Notes under the pieces: model-generated
Seen by the model: only the letters and a program-made list of their open reading frames with translations
Told to the model about the DNA's origin: nothing
Databases searched by the model: none
Source: Patescibacteria group bacterium
GTDB taxonomy: Bacteria > Patescibacteriota > Patescibacteriia > JBHPGJ01
Assembly: GCA_042570545.1 (NCBI GenBank)
Contig: JBHPGJ010000009.1
Coordinates: 1-60,623, forward strand
Length of the DNA stretch: 60,623 nt
Direction of reading: 5' to 3'
Translations under genes and position numbers: made by a program
In this document: piece after piece, positions 18,845-25,769 of the stretch
Layout of the letters: every line of letters begins with the position of its first letter
How positions within the stretch are numbered: the stretch's first letter is position 1

Positions 18845-19000
18845 ATGTGTTGTCCTTTTTCAAAGGAAAAATAAAAACAAAAACACACATGAGGAGGCCA
18901 GAGGCCTATAATTCGCCTCTGGATTTATAAAAAAATCCAAAGTCGATAGGGCCTCTGGCCCTCAAACTTTTTCTTGATATGCTCTCTTATAAAAAAGAGA
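18845..19000 (+). ncRNA. Putative structured 5' leader or small RNA of unknown family
   Basis: Several hairpins starting at the predicted TSS; GC-rich 10-bp stem GGCCAGAGGC/GCCTCTGGCC in an AT-rich context; alternative pairing partner; two stems with identical ATAAAA loops. Confidence 0.6.
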
Positions 19001-19018
19001 TTTTTTAATAAAACAAAA

Positions 19019-20428
19019 ATGAAAAATAAAAATTATTTTATTGCTTTCGTCATTATATTACTGTTCATTCTTCCAGTTGATGTTAAAGCAGAAAATGAGC
19101 AAGCACCAGAAATAAAATTATTTGATACCGAAGCTGTTAAGCAATTTAGAAGTTTTTTTGGCTTTGCTAAAAATTGGTATGGTGGAGTCAATCTTGCCAC
19201 TGGCGATGTTGATGGTGATGGTGAAGAAGAAATAATTGCTGCTGCTGGCCCAGGTGGTGGTCCGAATGTACAAGTTTATTCCCGAAGGGGAAATCGGTTA
19301 TTTAATTTCATGGCTTATGACGAACGATTTCGTGGCGGAGTTAATATTGCCACCGGAGATGTTGATGGTGATGGTATTGATGAAATTATTACCGCTCCCG
19401 AATTTGGCGGTGGCCCACATATAAAAATATTTAGATTTGACGGAAAATTATCAACGCAATTTAATGCTTTTGATCCAAGTATGAAAAAAGGTTTTACCGT
19501 TACCTCGGGTGACACTGATGGCGATGGTAAAGACGAAGTGATTGTAGCAACCGGACTGGGGACCAGAACTGAAGTAAAAATATTTAATCGATATGGCAAA
19601 TATTTGGACCAAACGTTTTATCCATTTTCTGAAGATGAAAAAGGCGGAGCCTCAATGGCCACAGGAAACTTTGATGATGACCCAATGGACGAAATTATAA
19701 TTGCCGTAAGACGACGTGGTAAGCCCTGGATAAAAATTTATAACAATGATGACCACCGGACAATAACTAGCGAATTTTATGCTTTTCCTAATGAATTTCA
19801 AGGCGGTGTTAATGTGGCCGCCGGTGATATAAACGGTGACAATATTAATGATATTATAGTAGCGGCAAATTCAGGTGGTGGACCACACGTCAGAACGTTT
19901 TCAGTTAATGGTATTAAGAAAAATTTTCAAGTATTCCCGTATCCTCTAAACTTTAGTGGTGGAGTAAATGTTGCAACTATTGATAACAATAACGATGGAC
20001 TATTAGAAATTATAACAGCGCCCAGTGCTCATCTTTCTGGAAATCGTCCAGAACTAGTAAAATATATCGAGGTTGATTTATCTGAACAGACTTTACGAGC
20101 TTATGAATACGGAAAATTAATTAAAACTTTTTTAGTATCAACAGGCAAACTTGGCTATAATACTAAACAGGGGGATTTTTCAATTTCGCAAAAAATACTG
20201 GTCAAAGATTATTTTGGATATTATGGACCAGGCCATCCTGATAATTACGATTTGCCCAACGCCAAGTGGAACTTACGTTTTAATGGCGCCTTTCTTTTAC
20301 ATGGTGCTTATTGGCATAATAATTTTGGTAATGTTATGAGCCATGGTTGTGTAAATATAAGTTATACAAATGCCGAGTGGCTATATAATTGGGCAACAAT
20401 TGATACTGCTGTCAAAGTAAAAGAATAA
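19019..20428 (+). CDS. Secreted FG-GAP-repeat beta-propeller fused to a YkuD L,D-transpeptidase domain
   Basis: Signal peptide from ATG 19019 (MKNKNYFIAF...VKA); six GGVN.A.GDxDGDG..EII repeats; IEVDLSEQ, VSTG, HGAYWH...SHGCVN catalytic motif. Confidence 0.9.
   Translation: MKNKNYFIAFVIILLFILPVDVKAENEQAPEIKLFDTEAVKQFRSFFGFAKNWYGGVNLATGDVDGDGEEEIIAAAGPGGGPNVQVYSRRGNRLFNFMAYDERFRGGVNIATGDVDGDGIDEIITAPEFGGGPHIKIFRFDGKLSTQFNAFDPSMKKGFTVTSGDTDGDGKDEVIVATGLGTRTEVKIFNRYGKYLDQTFYPFSEDEKGGASMATGNFDDDPMDEIIIAVRRRGKPWIKIYNNDDHRTITSEFYAFPNEFQGGVNVAAGDINGDNINDIIVAANSGGGPHVRTFSVNGIKKNFQVFPYPLNFSGGVNVATIDNNNDGLLEIITAPSAHLSGNRPELVKYIEVDLSEQTLRAYEYGKLIKTFLVSTGKLGYNTKQGDFSISQKILVKDYFGYYGPGHPDNYDLPNAKWNLRFNGAFLLHGAYWHNNFGNVMSHGCVNISYTNAEWLYNWATIDTAVKVKE
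19181..20024 (+). repeat. Six FG-GAP-like protein repeats (about 50 aa period)
   Basis: GDVDGDGEEEII, GDVDGDGIDEII, GDTDGDGKDEVI, GNFDDDPMDEII, GDINGDNINDII, IDNNNDGLLEII; the first two are also similar at DNA level. Confidence 0.85.
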
Positions 20429-20501: not shown

Positions 20502-22202
20502 ATGACACAACAATCAAAAATTAGAGTAATTCTACTAATAATATTTTTACTTACTGCCGCTGCGGTCTATGTGGATTATCCAAAATCACCCGACTTAAAG
20601 ATTGGTAATTGGGAAAAAGAATTAAAAGTGCATCTAGGGCTAGATTTAGAAGGTGGTATTCATTTAGTATATCGTGCCGATGTCAATGAAATTCCAGACA
20701 GTGACCGATCTGATGCTCTCGATGGAGCCAGAGATGTTATAGAGAGAAGAATAAATATTTTTGGTGTATCTGAACCTATAGTACAAACTAGTCAGTTGGC
20801 AGGTGATTACCGGATCATTGTTGAACTAGCTGGAGTTTTTGATGTAAATAGGGCTATCGAAATAATTGGTGACACTCCATTGCTTGAATTTAAAGAAGAA
20901 GGAGAAACTAGTGAAACTGATGAATTAAGCGAGGTTGATGCTGATATCACAGCCTATAATGAACAAGCCAAAAACAGGGCCCAAGAAATACTGACTAAGG
21001 CATTATCAGCTGATGCTGATTTTGCTTCATTGGCAAACGAGTTTTCAGAGGATCCGGGTAATACCAACAGCGAAGGCGATAAATTGGGTGGTGAACTGGG
21101 ATTTAATATAGCCGGTACTTTTGTTGAAGAATTTGACGAGGCGTTATTTGTTAATTTAGAAGATGATGAAATTTATCCGGAATTAGTAGAAACGGTTTTT
21201 GGTTATCACATAATTAAGAGAGAAGAAAGTAGGCAGAATGATGATGATGAACTCGAAGTAAAAAGTCGGCATATTTTAATATCAAAAAGAAGTGAACAAG
21301 ATATTGTAAATCAATTAGAAAATTATCAAGCCACTGATTTAACCGGGCAACATTTGAAATCAGCCCAAGTACAATTTGATCCAAATACAAACGAACCGTT
21401 AGTAGCCTTGGAATTCAATAGTGAGGGAAGTGATTTGTTCGCTGAAATTACCAAAAGGAATTTAGGACGGACGGTCGCAATATTCTTGGATGGTGCGCCG
21501 ATATCTATTCCGGTAGTTAATCAAGAAATTACATCAGGTCAAGCCGTAATACAAGGTAGCTTTACTCTAGACGATGCCAAAACATTAGCTCGTAGATTAA
21601 ATGCCGGAGCCTTACCAGTTCCGTTAACCTTATTAAGTCAGCAATCGATTGGTGCCACCTTGGGAAGACAATCAGTGGAGACTAGTCTTTTCGCCGGGTT
21701 AGTTGGTTTAATCATGGTGGCAATATTTATGGTTATATATTACCGTTTACCTGGTGTCATGGCAGTATTGGCATTAACAATTTATGCCTTAATAGTTTTA
21801 GCAATATTTAAATTATGGCCCGTAACTTTAACCCTAGCTGGTGTGGCCGGTTTTATATTATCTATCGGCATGGCCGTCGATGCTAATATTTTAATATTTG
21901 AGAGACTGAAAGAAGAATTAAGAGCCGGACGAGCACCAGCACAAGCTGTTGAAGAAGCATTCCGTCGAGCCTGGCCCTCTATTAGGGATGCTAATATATC
22001 AAGTTTAATTACAACTTTTATATTATTTATTTTCTCGACAAGTCTAATAAGAGGTTTTGCTGTTACTTTAAGTATTGGCATAGTAATAAGTATGTTTTCG
22101 GCCATGGTAATTACAAAAAATTTGTTAAGATCAATCTCTGTAAATAAAGATATCCACGGTAAAAAAATATTTGGCATTAAAATACCGACTAACAATGAAT
22201 AA
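20502..22202 (+). CDS. secD: Protein translocase subunit SecD with an inserted parvulin-type PPIase domain
   Basis: LGLDLEGG, IERRINIFGVSEP, LNAGALP, GMAVDANILIFER; insert aa ~153-262 with DFASLANEFSED, GGELG, TVFGYHII, SRHILI. Confidence 0.96.
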   Translation: MTQQSKIRVILLIIFLLTAAAVYVDYPKSPDLKIGNWEKELKVHLGLDLEGGIHLVYRADVNEIPDSDRSDALDGARDVIERRINIFGVSEPIVQTSQLAGDYRIIVELAGVFDVNRAIEIIGDTPLLEFKEEGETSETDELSEVDADITAYNEQAKNRAQEILTKALSADADFASLANEFSEDPGNTNSEGDKLGGELGFNIAGTFVEEFDEALFVNLEDDEIYPELVETVFGYHIIKREESRQNDDDELEVKSRHILISKRSEQDIVNQLENYQATDLTGQHLKSAQVQFDPNTNEPLVALEFNSEGSDLFAEITKRNLGRTVAIFLDGAPISIPVVNQEITSGQAVIQGSFTLDDAKTLARRLNAGALPVPLTLLSQQSIGATLGRQSVETSLFAGLVGLIMVAIFMVIYYRLPGVMAVLALTIYALIVLAIFKLWPVTLTLAGVAGFILSIGMAVDANILIFERLKEELRAGRAPAQAVEEAFRRAWPSIRDANISSLITTFILFIFSTSLIRGFAVTLSIGIVISMFSAMVITKNLLRSISVNKDIHGKKIFGIKIPTNNE

Positions 22203-23091
22203 CGTTTATAGAATTATTCAACGAAGAAAAATATGGTATTCACTGTCAATAATTATAATTATTATTGGTGCGGTATTTATTGCCTTGGGCGGTTTAAAAT
22301 TGGGCGTTGATTTCACCGGCGGTTCATTAATGCAAATATCTTTTGCTGATGATCGGCCAGCTATGAGTGAAATTACAAATGTGTTTAGTGGACAAAATGT
22401 TGAAAATGTCAGAATGCAAACGCTAGGTGAATTAAGTTATAATATTAGATTTGCCGAAGTTGACAGTCAAAAACATCAAGAAATACAATTAGCCCTTAAA
22501 GAAAAATTTAATGATTATAGGGAAGAATCATTTGAAGTCATTGGTCCAGTTATCGGTCAGGAAGTTACGAATCGAGCAATAACATCGATAAGCTTAGTGT
22601 TGTTAGGAATAATAATTTATATTATGTGGGCCTTCCGGTCGGCCACCAGTGAATTTTCTTCATGGATGTTTGGAATAAATGCTGTCATTGCTCTACTGCA
22701 CGATATTGCCATTACTATTGGTATATTTGCTGCGTTAGGATATTTCTTCGGCATTGAAATTAATGTATTGTTTGTAACGGCTCTACTTACCATCTTGGGA
22801 TTTTCTGTACATGATACCATCGTTGTATTTGATCGAATCCGTGAATCATTAAAGGTCCAATCGGGTACATTAGAAGAAATTGCTAATTACAGTGTTAATC
22901 AAACAATAGTAAGATCTGTTAATACTACATCGACAACACTATTAGTTTTGTTAGCATTGTTTATCTTTGGTGGAAATAGCATTCACTATTTTGTATTGGC
23001 CCTAATAATCGGTATGATTGCTGGTACATATTCATCAATCTTCATTGCCAGCCCATTATTGATAAGTTTATCTGGACTGAAAAAAAGATAA
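22195..23091 (+). CDS. secF: Protein translocase subunit SecF
   Basis: LGVDFTGG, IGPVIG, LLHD, GFSVHDTIVVFDRIRE, GTYSSIFIASP; ATG 22195 overlaps the secD end. Confidence 0.96.
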   Translation: MNNVYRIIQRRKIWYSLSIIIIIIGAVFIALGGLKLGVDFTGGSLMQISFADDRPAMSEITNVFSGQNVENVRMQTLGELSYNIRFAEVDSQKHQEIQLALKEKFNDYREESFEVIGPVIGQEVTNRAITSISLVLLGIIIYIMWAFRSATSEFSSWMFGINAVIALLHDIAITIGIFAALGYFFGIEINVLFVTALLTILGFSVHDTIVVFDRIRESLKVQSGTLEEIANYSVNQTIVRSVNTTSTTLLVLLALFIFGGNSIHYFVLALIIGMIAGTYSSIFIASPLLISLSGLKKR

Positions 23092-23186: not shown

Positions 23187-24359
23187 ATGGTAAATAACGA
23201 TAAACAAAATAATTCGACTGAAGAAATCATGAACGAAAGCGGTTCATCCATTTTGGATAAGATAATTAGCTCAAAACAATCTTCAGCTATTGAAGCATTT
23301 CATCCGGTTGATACGGTAACTAATTTATTAAAACAGCTATCTAATAAAGACGAAGATATTATTAGAAGAAGATTTGGTTTGAATGGACAAAAGTCAGAAA
23401 CATTAGAAGAGATTGGAAAAATATATAATGTTACTAGAGAAAGAATTAGACAAATCGAAAGATCCGGAATCGATAAGATAAAATCATTTGGTCAATTTGA
23501 AACAACTGTTGAACCGGTAGCTGAAGTTATAAAATCAATATTAGAGCAAAGCGGCGGTATCATGGAAGAAGAATCAATGATGAGACAATTGTTAATTAAT
23601 ACCGGCGATACCAAAATAAATAGAAATTCTATAAATTTCATAATTCAAGAACTTTTAAATAATCGATTTGAAATAATTAATGAATCGTCTTCAAGAAAAA
23701 TAGCCTGGCACATAAAATTATCTCCATTAGACTTAGTTAACAGAACCATCGATGCCATCGAAGAGATAATAAGCAAAATCGGTAAGCCAATGGATCTTGA
23801 AAATTTGATTGATGAATTTCGCCAGCATGAAATATATAAACATAACGCTGATAAATTAAATGAGACAGTAATAACTAGCTATATTGAATTATCAAAAAAT
23901 ATTGATAAGAATCCATTTGGTGAATACGGACTAGTTGGTTGGGGCAGTATCGTGCCAAAAAGAATGAATGATAAAATATACCTCGTTATGAAAAAGCATG
24001 GTAAGCCATTGCATTTCAATGAAATTACAAAACAAGTAAATACAGCTGGCTTTGACAACCGCAAAGCCTATGCCCCGACAGTTCACAACGAGCTAATATT
24101 AAATGATCGTTATGTTTTAATCGGTAGGGGAATTTATGCCCTAAAAGAGTGGGGCTATAAACCAGGAGTGGTGCTGCAAGTATTAATAAGAGTATTAGAA
24201 AAATCACCCATTGCATTATCTCGTGATGATTTAGTTAAGAGGGTCCTTGAACAGAGAGTAGTGAAGAAAAATACTATATTTTTGGCCTTAACAAATAAAA
24301 ATTATTTTACCCGTCTTGAAGATGGCAAATATATTATCAATAACAAAGAACAAAATTAA
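23187..24359 (+). CDS. Sigma70 region-4 HTH plus C-terminal HARE-HTH (RNAP delta-like) protein; not a complete sigma factor
   Basis: IIRRRFGL...TLEEIGKIYNVTRERIRQIE; C-terminal KHGKPLHFNEI...TVHNELI..RYVLIGRGIYALKEWG; no region 2 motif. Confidence 0.8.
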   Translation: MVNNDKQNNSTEEIMNESGSSILDKIISSKQSSAIEAFHPVDTVTNLLKQLSNKDEDIIRRRFGLNGQKSETLEEIGKIYNVTRERIRQIERSGIDKIKSFGQFETTVEPVAEVIKSILEQSGGIMEEESMMRQLLINTGDTKINRNSINFIIQELLNNRFEIINESSSRKIAWHIKLSPLDLVNRTIDAIEEIISKIGKPMDLENLIDEFRQHEIYKHNADKLNETVITSYIELSKNIDKNPFGEYGLVGWGSIVPKRMNDKIYLVMKKHGKPLHFNEITKQVNTAGFDNRKAYAPTVHNELILNDRYVLIGRGIYALKEWGYKPGVVLQVLIRVLEKSPIALSRDDLVKRVLEQRVVKKNTIFLALTNKNYFTRLEDGKYIINNKEQN

Positions 24360-24374
24360 AAATCTAAACTATAA

Positions 24375-25769
24375 ATGTCCGATCTAGCAGCTTCCAGTTT
24401 AACAATCTGGGATCCATTTATAACATTATGGCAAATATTAACCAATGGTGGTTGGCTGGTTATCCTTGGTGCTTTTTTAGTCGGTTTTTGGTGGTGGTAT
24501 GTGATCCATATAAAGTTAAGTTATTCGGGCAAGATCGATTATGTATTATTAGCCATTGATGTGCCCAAAGATAACGAACAAAGTCCCAAGGCCGTTGAAC
24601 ATATTTTTTCACAATTACATGGCATATTAAAATCAGGCGATCTGATACAACGCTATGTCGCTGGATATAATCAAATGGGCTTTGCTTTTGAATTGGTTAG
24701 CATTGATGGTTATATACAATATTTGGTAAGAACGCCAACTAATTATAGAGATTTAGTAGAGTCTGCAATCTACGCTCAATATCCAGATGCCGAAATAAGC
24801 GAAGCTACTGATTATACAGAAAATATACCCCATGAATATCCAGATGACGAATATGACATGTATGGTTTTGAAATGAAATTGACCAATAAACAAGTCTATC
24901 CCATAAGAACATATCCAGAGTTTGAACATTCACTTTCACAAGAATTTAAAGATCCGATGGCGGCTTTGTTGGAAATGATGAGTCGTTTACAGGTAGGTGA
25001 GCAGGTATGGTTACAATTAAATGTTTATCCAGCCTCAGATAAAATATGGCGTGAGGAGGGGAAGGCTCTAATAAAAAAATTAGTTGGCGCCAAATCTGCC
25101 AATGGTAAAAGCGGTATGGTATCGCAAGTTGGTCAGGGCGTAAGTGAATCAATCACCGCTTCATTGATGCCCATTGGCGCGGATTCTGACAACAAAGTAG
25201 AAAACCGGTGGCCGACATTAATGCAACACCTAACCCCGTCCGAAAGATCAATTGTTGAAGCAATTGGGATAAAATTGTCAAAACTAGGATTTTTTTGCAA
25301 GATTAGATTAATATATTTGGGTAAAAAAAATGTCTATAATACCAGAACACGCATACAAGCAATTATGGGTACAATTAAACAGTTTAATTCCCAGGACTTG
25401 AATGGATTTAAACAAGATAAAAAAACTCGTACCAGAGCTGTCTATCCACCAATAAAATCAATAATTGACTGGAGAATAAAACGTCGGCGTAAAAAAATAA
25501 TGTTAGGATACAAATATAGATCTATTTTACGTGGACGTAATCAGTTTGTTCTTAATATAGAGGAACTGGCCTCAATCTGGCACTTCCCGGTACTGACGGT
25601 CAAAGCTCCGCTAGTGCAAAAAACAGAAAGTAAAAAGAGCGAACCACCCACCTCATTACCATTAGAAGGCGCCCAGATACCGATTGGACCGGAAGAAGAG
25701 GTGGAAGAAGCTAAAACTGCTGTGCCGACCGAAGAAAAAACACCAGCTAATTTACCATTTGTAGAATAA
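24375..25769 (+). CDS. Membrane-anchored conserved hypothetical protein, partner of the downstream ATPase
   Basis: N-terminal TM; VESAIYAQYPDAEI, YPIRTY..FE, LNIEELASIWHFP; TAATG coupling to the ATPase. Confidence 0.75.
   Translation: MSDLAASSLTIWDPFITLWQILTNGGWLVILGAFLVGFWWWYVIHIKLSYSGKIDYVLLAIDVPKDNEQSPKAVEHIFSQLHGILKSGDLIQRYVAGYNQMGFAFELVSIDGYIQYLVRTPTNYRDLVESAIYAQYPDAEISEATDYTENIPHEYPDDEYDMYGFEMKLTNKQVYPIRTYPEFEHSLSQEFKDPMAALLEMMSRLQVGEQVWLQLNVYPASDKIWREEGKALIKKLVGAKSANGKSGMVSQVGQGVSESITASLMPIGADSDNKVENRWPTLMQHLTPSERSIVEAIGIKLSKLGFFCKIRLIYLGKKNVYNTRTRIQAIMGTIKQFNSQDLNGFKQDKKTRTRAVYPPIKSIIDWRIKRRRKKIMLGYKYRSILRGRNQFVLNIEELASIWHFPVLTVKAPLVQKTESKKSEPPTSLPLEGAQIPIGPEEEVEEAKTAVPTEEKTPANLPFVE

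Follow-up and report, generated by a model that had tools for sequence, protein, structure and literature searches.

How a polypeptide that leaves the SecYEG channel is passed on to the proteins that help it fold continues to be debated, and the evidence brought to bear is weak, namely low-resolution electron microscopy (EM), cross-links and structure predictions. A locus from a Patescibacteria group bacterium (GenBank assembly GCA_042570545.1) raises this question within a single gene. In the stretch of DNA analysed here, positions 1 to 60,623 of contig JBHPGJ010000009.1 (60,623 nucleotides; hereafter the window), secD (20502..22202, forward strand) encodes a SecD protein whose P1 domain contains an additional segment that resembles a parvulin, a peptidyl-prolyl cis/trans isomerase (PPIase). 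Is this segment a whole parvulin domain, is the order of its strands truly permuted, and what would such a domain do in an export motor? The reading we favour, with a probability of about 0.78, is that of a SecD of the SecD/SecF motor of small-genome Patescibacteria (candidate phyla radiation, CPR) that carries a circularly permuted foldase parvulin at the junction of the P1 base and the P1 head. In model bacteria such a folding helper is a protein of its own; here, as far as the sequence tells, it is built into the export motor. Such a conserved, natural fusion of a parvulin with the P1 domain of SecD constitutes independent evolutionary support for a functional link between parvulins and SecDF, and it provides a single-chain object on which this link can be tested.

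A parvulin between the P1 base and the P1 head of SecD

The protein, P0001, comprises 566 amino acids plus stop in a single open frame. It matches the NCBIfam model secD (TIGR01129) with 395.4 bits, compared to a cut-off of 244.4, and aligns to SecDF from Thermus thermophilus (3aqp) with an E value of 1.2e-83. The match above cut-off, the presence of a P1 head, the transmembrane aspartate D460 and the adjoining secF together identify it as SecD. The Pfam comparison proposed in the initial annotation of the window returned, from the N- to the C-terminus, SecD_1st, Rotamase, SecDF_P1_head and SecD_SecF_C. The N-terminal part of P1 (SecD_1st, PF21760, E 6.1e-17; residues 74-133, 20721..20900) ends in the conserved strand PLLEFKE, and T125, P126, L128 and F130 are invariant across the 35 SecD homologues of our alignment A1. 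An acidic linker (residues 134-144, 20901..20933), gapped and variable in A1 and without a Pfam match, leads from this base strand to the parvulin. The parvulin core runs from helix 1 to beta4 (residues 145-241, 20934..21224) and contains D184 (21051-21053) and the motif GYH236IIK (His at 21207-21209). It is followed by a loop (residues 242-251, 21225..21254) whose length differs across the family (A1 columns 320-345), by the relocated beta1 strand E252-S261 (EVKSRHILIS, 21255..21284, with H257 at 21270-21272) and by a connector to P1 (residues 262-276, 21285..21329) that aligns to 3aqp from residue 145 on. The P1 head subdomain (residues 277-373, 21330..21620) matches SecDF_P1_head (PF22599, E 5.3e-30) over profile positions 18-114 of 114. 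Finally, the transmembrane, C-terminal SecD_SecF domain (PF02355, SecD_SecF_C; residues 378-545, 21633..22136), which is also covered by the 3aqp alignment, carries the motif AVD460AN, in which D460 and N462 are invariant in the 35 homologues.

The identity of the inserted domain is clear from several comparisons. Rotamase (PF00639) matches residues 150-241 with 50.6 bits (cut-off 21.7, E 3.9e-13) over profile positions 12-96 of 97, and Rotamase_3 (PF13616) matches residues 151-242 with 54.5 bits (cut-off 22.5) over positions 31-114 of 116; in the profile search of the genome the Rotamase match lies at 20949-21224. The best solved chains of the PrsA, SurA, PEB4 and PpiC type align to the insert with E values of 3e-10 to 1e-8. 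A160, F174, D184, G196, G197, G234, H236, I237 and I238 are invariant in all 35 SecD homologues. The initial annotation had placed a complete parvulin with both histidines in permuted order within P1 of SecD, at 20958-21287; these positions correspond to residues 153-262, its RHIL at 21267-21278 is R256-L259, and the order of the Pfam domains, the conservation and the motif alignment bear this description out.

The site of insertion lies after the last strand of the P1 base (LEFKE) and before the P1 head, with the parvulin occupying residues of about 145-261. The alignment to 3aqp falls into two parts, with SecD residues 39-138 matching 29-125 and residues 264-547 matching 145-427, so that about 125 residues of SecD occupy a site that takes about 20 in Thermus. 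Since SecDF_P1_head is matched from position 18 only, the insert displaces positions 1-17 of the head profile; the boundaries of head and base follow the Pfam models, together with the general layout of the Thermus structure. The initial annotation had seen the domain grafted on the moving head; from its site at the connector between base and head, it might travel with the head. The canonical SecD and SecDF proteins from Thermus (3AQP, 5YHF), Deinococcus radiodurans (5XAM, 5XAN, 5XAP) and E. coli (5MG3) share with P0001 the N-terminal P1 part, the head and the transmembrane domain with the aspartate of the AVDAN motif. However, from the LEF(K/R) strand to the head P0001 has about 125 residues including the parvulin, compared to about 20 in Thermus, and none of the matched solved SecD chains aligned to the insert or contains a foldase domain.

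The insert belongs to the same profile family as PrsA from Bacillus subtilis (4WO7, 1ZK6), SurA (1M5Y), PEB4 (3RFW) and PpiC/Par10, with which it shares the motifs FGYHIIK, SxDxxS...GGxLG and xxHIL. In PrsA and SurA, too, the parvulin is set into a host protein. The SecD insert differs from these types in that beta1 follows beta4, and in that its host is a membrane motor and not an N- and C-terminal chaperone domain. No SurA_N-type domain was matched by Pfam in SecD, and the flanking SurA_N or N/C chaperone domain typical of PrsA, SurA and PpiD is absent from it.

A permuted order of strands

The parvulin fold is built around a four-stranded antiparallel sheet, according to the accessible text of PMC12524980, and its canonical order begins with beta1 and helix 1 and ends with beta4. 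The SecD insert departs from this order. Profile positions 1-11 of Rotamase remain without a match in it. Solved single-domain parvulins open with the xSHILV strand and close with FGYHIIK: 2m08 has KIKCSHILV at 5-20 and FGYHIIKR at 78-91, and the corresponding segments lie at 119-141 and from 192 on in 4wo7, and at 111-141 and 192-213 in 3rfw. In SecD the segment that follows beta4 (LEVKSRHILISKRSE) is matched in 3rfw and 2m08 by beta1 together with the beginning of helix 1. Upstream of helix 1, the alignment of 35 sequences has a variable, acidic stretch of the 'LTxEE' type that is not conserved as a strand. We considered the LEFKE strand as a possible beta1 and rejected it, as it is kept in all SecDs including that of Thermus and is parted from helix 1 by the variable linker. 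The His-bearing strand said to be missing ahead of helix 1 is indeed missing there, in the profile match as in the alignments to solved parvulins, and returns after GYHIIK as R256-H257-I-L-I. The same order holds for all 47 SecD-like proteins among 387 fetched, with a His strand following beta4 and none in the 30 residues ahead of helix 1.

In the proposed topology the chain would enter at helix 1 and run through beta2, helix 4, beta3 and beta4 with GYH236IIK. After beta4 and a loop of variable length, R256-H257-ILI would fill the missing central strand as the second arm of a beta4/beta1' hairpin, and the chain would exit to the P1 head at the place where beta1 normally meets helix 1. The case shows that the parvulin fold tolerates transfer of the central strand with its catalytic histidine to the C-terminal end. 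In the literature we searched, which was thin for subscription journals, a permuted parvulin was not found described.

The alignments admit a second explanation of the trailing strand. RHILI might be a linker leftover of a second parvulin, retained from an offset slice through a tandem such as the two parvulin domains of SurA (P1 and P2, not to be confused with P1 of SecD), and the insert would then be an incomplete, three-stranded parvulin. In SurA, the region matched by the insert starts at helix 1 of the first parvulin, crosses the linker and extends to 'EVHARHILLK', beta1 of the second, and some longer forms of SecD, described below, hold a full second unit directly after a KARHILI-like strand. 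We nevertheless consider a leftover very improbable. The 35 homologues keep H257 and I258 without exception and L259 to at least 90%, although the loop in front of the strand varies so much that the spacing from His to His is 16-66 residues in 42 of the 44 SecD homologues in which both histidines could be matched. Structure prediction and covariation, to which we turn now, speak against a leftover as well.

Evidence that the relocated strand belongs to the sheet

In the parvulin sheet the slot of beta1 lies between beta4 and beta2. The initial annotation had named a model in which the RHIL strand does not complete the sheet as the outcome that would speak against a permuted parvulin. We cut the insert in front of the trailing strand and folded the two pieces as separate chains (residues 140-246 as chain 1 and 247-282 as partner, with 33 aligned rows each). 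Each of the three runs scored 0.82, compared to 0.02 for the best of three controls; by way of calibration, 116 of 157 solved complexes attain the mark used, as do 2 of 215 mismatched pairs. Contacts agreed between runs by at least 92% and the predicted local distance difference test (pLDDT) value of the partner was at least 65. The contacts with the lowest predicted error (235:260, 237:258, 238:257, 239:256 and 240:254) place the strand antiparallel to beta4, and further contacts are predicted with beta2 (201:253/254) and with residues 160, 163 and 177-183 in the helical part of the core. Residues 145-167 have predicted contacts of helix-like periodicity. From these contacts the trailing strand would sit between beta4 and beta2. 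The core itself is predicted with confidence only when the strand is present, its pLDDT being 86 with the trailing strand and 56-60 with unrelated partners, which argues against a mere linker leftover.

Covariation leads to the same place. We applied mean-field direct coupling analysis (DCA) to 107 columns of 205 single-domain sequences that a hidden Markov model (HMM) for the insert matches as far as the trailing strand; the input held 199 distinct permuted parvulins with an effective number of 153. The three strongest couplings at a separation of at least 5 all touch the strand (E241-R256, 6.67; R244-E252, 4.95; F216-V253, 4.41), whereas the maximum in 15 column-shuffled nulls was 2.48. Other couplings of the strand are L199-K254, F201-K254, F174-I258, L215-S255, N202-S255 and E183-S261, in addition to couplings with residues in 240-244. 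Residues 252-261 take part in 11 of the 30 top couplings (hypergeometric p 0.014); pairs that involve them make up 18.5% of the total. The strand thus covaries with beta2, with helix 4 and with F174 of the core, that is, beyond its hairpin partner, and this is not what a leftover of a lost unit predicts. Prediction and covariation agree in placing the His-bearing beta1 between beta2 and beta4, docked to and covarying with both.

Several points weigh on the other side. The two chains are halves of a fold that has been solved many times, and the success of the split-chain fold may therefore mirror likeness to solved parvulins, which is the very point under test. The result is also a statement of the model's own confidence, with a partner pLDDT of 66, and the ESM Atlas model of the SecD protein has a predicted template modelling (pTM) score of just 0.50. 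The column-shuffled null of the covariation analysis ignores the relatedness of the sequences.

A second permuted parvulin in the same genome

The genome (1.0 Mb in 27 contigs, 97% complete) contains exactly two Rotamase matches. The second lies in P0121, the only other parvulin gene, which encodes 349 amino acids on the reverse strand (L001:1312-2361, G000:C11) and matches Rotamase from profile position 12. P0121 has matches to SurA_N_3, SurA_N_2 and SurA_N and an N-terminal hydrophobic segment, which we read as a predicted membrane anchor. The anchor, the SurA_N domains and the parvulin together mark it as a PrsA/PpiD-like foldase. Consequently, the earlier suggestion that the SecD insert replaces PpiD or PrsA does not hold for a genome that encodes a predicted membrane-anchored foldase of this kind; the insert would instead work beside it.

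The order of strands in P0121 is permuted as well, with FGFHIIK followed by RARHILI. In the alignment of P0121 with 39 relatives, H281, I282, H307, I308 and L309 are invariant (40/40), and ahead of helix 1 a His strand is absent; the named sources of these relatives are Patescibacteria, Kerfeldbacteria, Magasanikbacteria and Parcubacteria. A stretch 'KLLIN' in front of helix 1 of P0121 was tried as a canonical beta1 and rejected, since the 40 sequences conserve neither a strand nor a His there. These stand-alone foldases share with the SecD insert the order helix 1, beta4, loop and RHILI, and differ from it by a predicted transmembrane anchor, by SurA_N-type domains and by lying outside SecD. 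Over a stretch that includes the trailing strand, the parvulin of P0121 and the SecD insert are 47% identical. The permutation had been taken for a peculiarity of the graft on SecD; with the shared order and this identity it is a lineage-wide trait to which the insert belongs, used across the family in stand-alone foldases of the same bacteria as well as in SecD. It seems plausible that the insert derives from the permuted lineage that also supplies the stand-alone foldase. A tree of 169 parvulin cores, in which the SecD label needs 15 changes, does not reject a single clade of all permuted forms (p value of the approximately unbiased test, p-AU, 0.49), nor does it show one; with an alignment of 83 columns, 74 of its 160 inner branches are open, which has to be counted against our reading of where the insert comes from.

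Distribution and longer forms

The initial annotation had called for a survey of SecD architectures by lineage. We searched 200 other sampled genomes of the phylum, and that of the window, with the insert as query (E <= 1e-5) and obtained matches in 59 of the 200 (60 of 201 with that of the window). Most of them lie in open frames of about 270-410 amino acids and are stand-alone foldases. The fusion with SecD recurs in at least 11 of the 200 other genomes, with the match in frames of 551-1035 amino acids. In all ten long frames tested, SecDF_P1_head follows directly downstream in the same frame, from profile positions 15-19, and in the eleventh genome (G182) SecD motifs are found in a frame of 799 amino acids. 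The ESM Atlas contains clusters of SecD plus Rotamase with 54-84 members from several candidate phyla, so that databases already carry an automatic annotation of this architecture. In the literature, again with thin coverage of subscription journals, a fusion of SecD and parvulin was not found described.

This recurrence makes it exceedingly improbable that the fusion is an artefact of assembly or gene calling. We found no support for an artefact; the genome is a draft assembly in 27 contigs, yet the gene is one open frame without stops, 44-47 fetched proteins of independent origin show this architecture too, and both the in-frame P1 heads and the ESM Atlas clusters argue for a real gene.

Two further searches are of limited use here. 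With the 136-residue insert, protein representatives gave 8103 matches at E <= 0.001, but the best 150 are dominated by multi-parvulin proteins, and the search therefore says little on SecD. One of the patterns used in a contig scan (A2), [TS]x[FY]GYHIIK, is generic, and the 80 loci kept are mostly ordinary parvulins of many phyla, which we left out of the distribution. A SecD with a parvulin insert (P0028) was also met on a public contig of 9,986 bases (L003) labelled Lysobacteraceae/Xanthomonadaceae. This contig is short and every other named SecD-parvulin match comes from candidate phyla, so that it may be mis-binned.

Single permuted forms like P0001 account for two of the ten frames parsed (L091 and L092; the G071 frame was left out). 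Longer SecD or SecDF forms of 669-1021 amino acids (L083, L084, L086, L087 and L089) have the order LEFK, degenerate unit, KARHILI-type strand, intact unit ending in FGYHLIY, His-less strand and head, and the His-less strand aligns to RHILIS of P0001. The arrangement would fit an intact parvulin that sits inside the loop of a permuted and degenerate one.

Active site and possible function

Does the insert act as an enzyme? The catalytic residues listed for Pin1 include His59, Cys113 and His157, and the position of Cys113 is taken by Asp in PrsA-type enzymes, as given in the available text of two sources (PMC12524980; bioRxiv 10.1101/2024.09.05.611430). By motif alignment to SurA and PEB4, these positions correspond to H257, D184 and H236 of the SecD insert, and the three are invariant in 35/35. 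From conserved residues only, we infer that the insert may catalyze prolyl isomerization. A foldase role of some kind appears probable to us, if by no great measure, and within such a role we favour an active isomerase over a module that only binds.

An alternative of some weight, though on balance unlikely, is that the insert has the fold of a parvulin without being an enzyme, and serves as a substrate-binding holdase or as a docking module, as is reported of parvulin domains in some periplasmic chaperones. The parvulin domain of PpiD and the first parvulin domain of SurA reportedly have the fold without isomerase activity, which is also a point against our own reading. The insert comes without a SurA_N-type domain of its own, and binding may thus be its main contribution beside the P1 head, which itself binds substrate. 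Several foldases of the PrsA/PpiC type still act as foldases after loss of the equivalent of His59, according to PMC12524980 as far as its text is accessible. In contrast, the invariance of both histidines and of the aspartate in the SecD homologues fits a retained catalytic site, and the equivalent H281 and H307 of the stand-alone relatives are as strictly kept. Of the two units in the longer SecD forms, one has lost these residues and the other retains them, suggesting selection on them. We return to the permuted foldase at the junction of the P1 base and the P1 head as the preferred reading.

The location offers an idea of what such a foldase might do. In the available part of a review (PMC6028853), the P1 domain is described to bind the emerging chain and to shift it away from the pore by use of the proton gradient. 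SurA binds the holo-translocon, and five of five AlphaFold models seat both of its parvulin domains on the P1 head of SecDF (PMC9987972, partial text); likewise, the parvulin lipoprotein Mpn444 from Mycoplasma pneumoniae cross-links to SecD (bioRxiv 10.1101/2024.09.05.611430, partial text). What these cases have in common with P0001 is a parvulin beside the P1 head at the Sec exit, an arrangement for which, in the accessible text of both reports, a passage of emerging chains to the foldase has been proposed (PMC9987972; bioRxiv 10.1101/2024.09.05.611430). They differ in that SurA and Mpn444 are separate proteins whose contact is known, in those texts, from low-resolution EM, AlphaFold models and cross-links, whereas SecD here is one polypeptide. 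By analogy, the fusion would make permanent the contact between parvulin and P1 head proposed for SurA with SecDF. The insert would be a working foldase (a prolyl isomerase, a holdase or both), kept at the Sec exit and acting on chains that are being pulled out by SecDF. With a permanent contact, chains captured by P1 would immediately encounter such an isomerase or holdase.

A bolder version, which we put forward as a tentative possibility, is that the permuted lineage is catalytically live and has placed one copy in the hinge of SecDF, where the proton-driven swing of the P1 head would present every newly emerging stretch of a secreted chain to the isomerase, and that the variable beta4-beta1' loop serves to nest further units in related lineages, as the longer forms might illustrate. 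If this were true, a single polypeptide would mechanically couple the pulling of a chain to its folding.

Genes around secD

The gene secF (22171..23091, forward strand) encodes 306 amino acids and matches PF02355 with an E value of 2.4e-55 and Sec_GG with 4.5e-06. Counted from its first possible start, a TTG, its 5' end overlaps the 3' end of secD by 32 bases (22171-22202); the true start may lie downstream of this TTG. Directly upstream of secD, a gene at 18974-20428 (forward strand) encodes a protein of 484 amino acids that has FG-GAP repeats and, at its C-terminus, a YkuD L,D-transpeptidase domain. Further downstream, an open reading frame of 464 amino acids (24375-25769, forward strand) matched no Pfam family at E <= 0.001. 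It is preceded by a gene for 390 amino acids (23187-24359, forward strand) that combines Sigma-70 region 4 near the N-terminus with HARE-HTH at residues 264-291, an odd pairing for a sigma-like protein.

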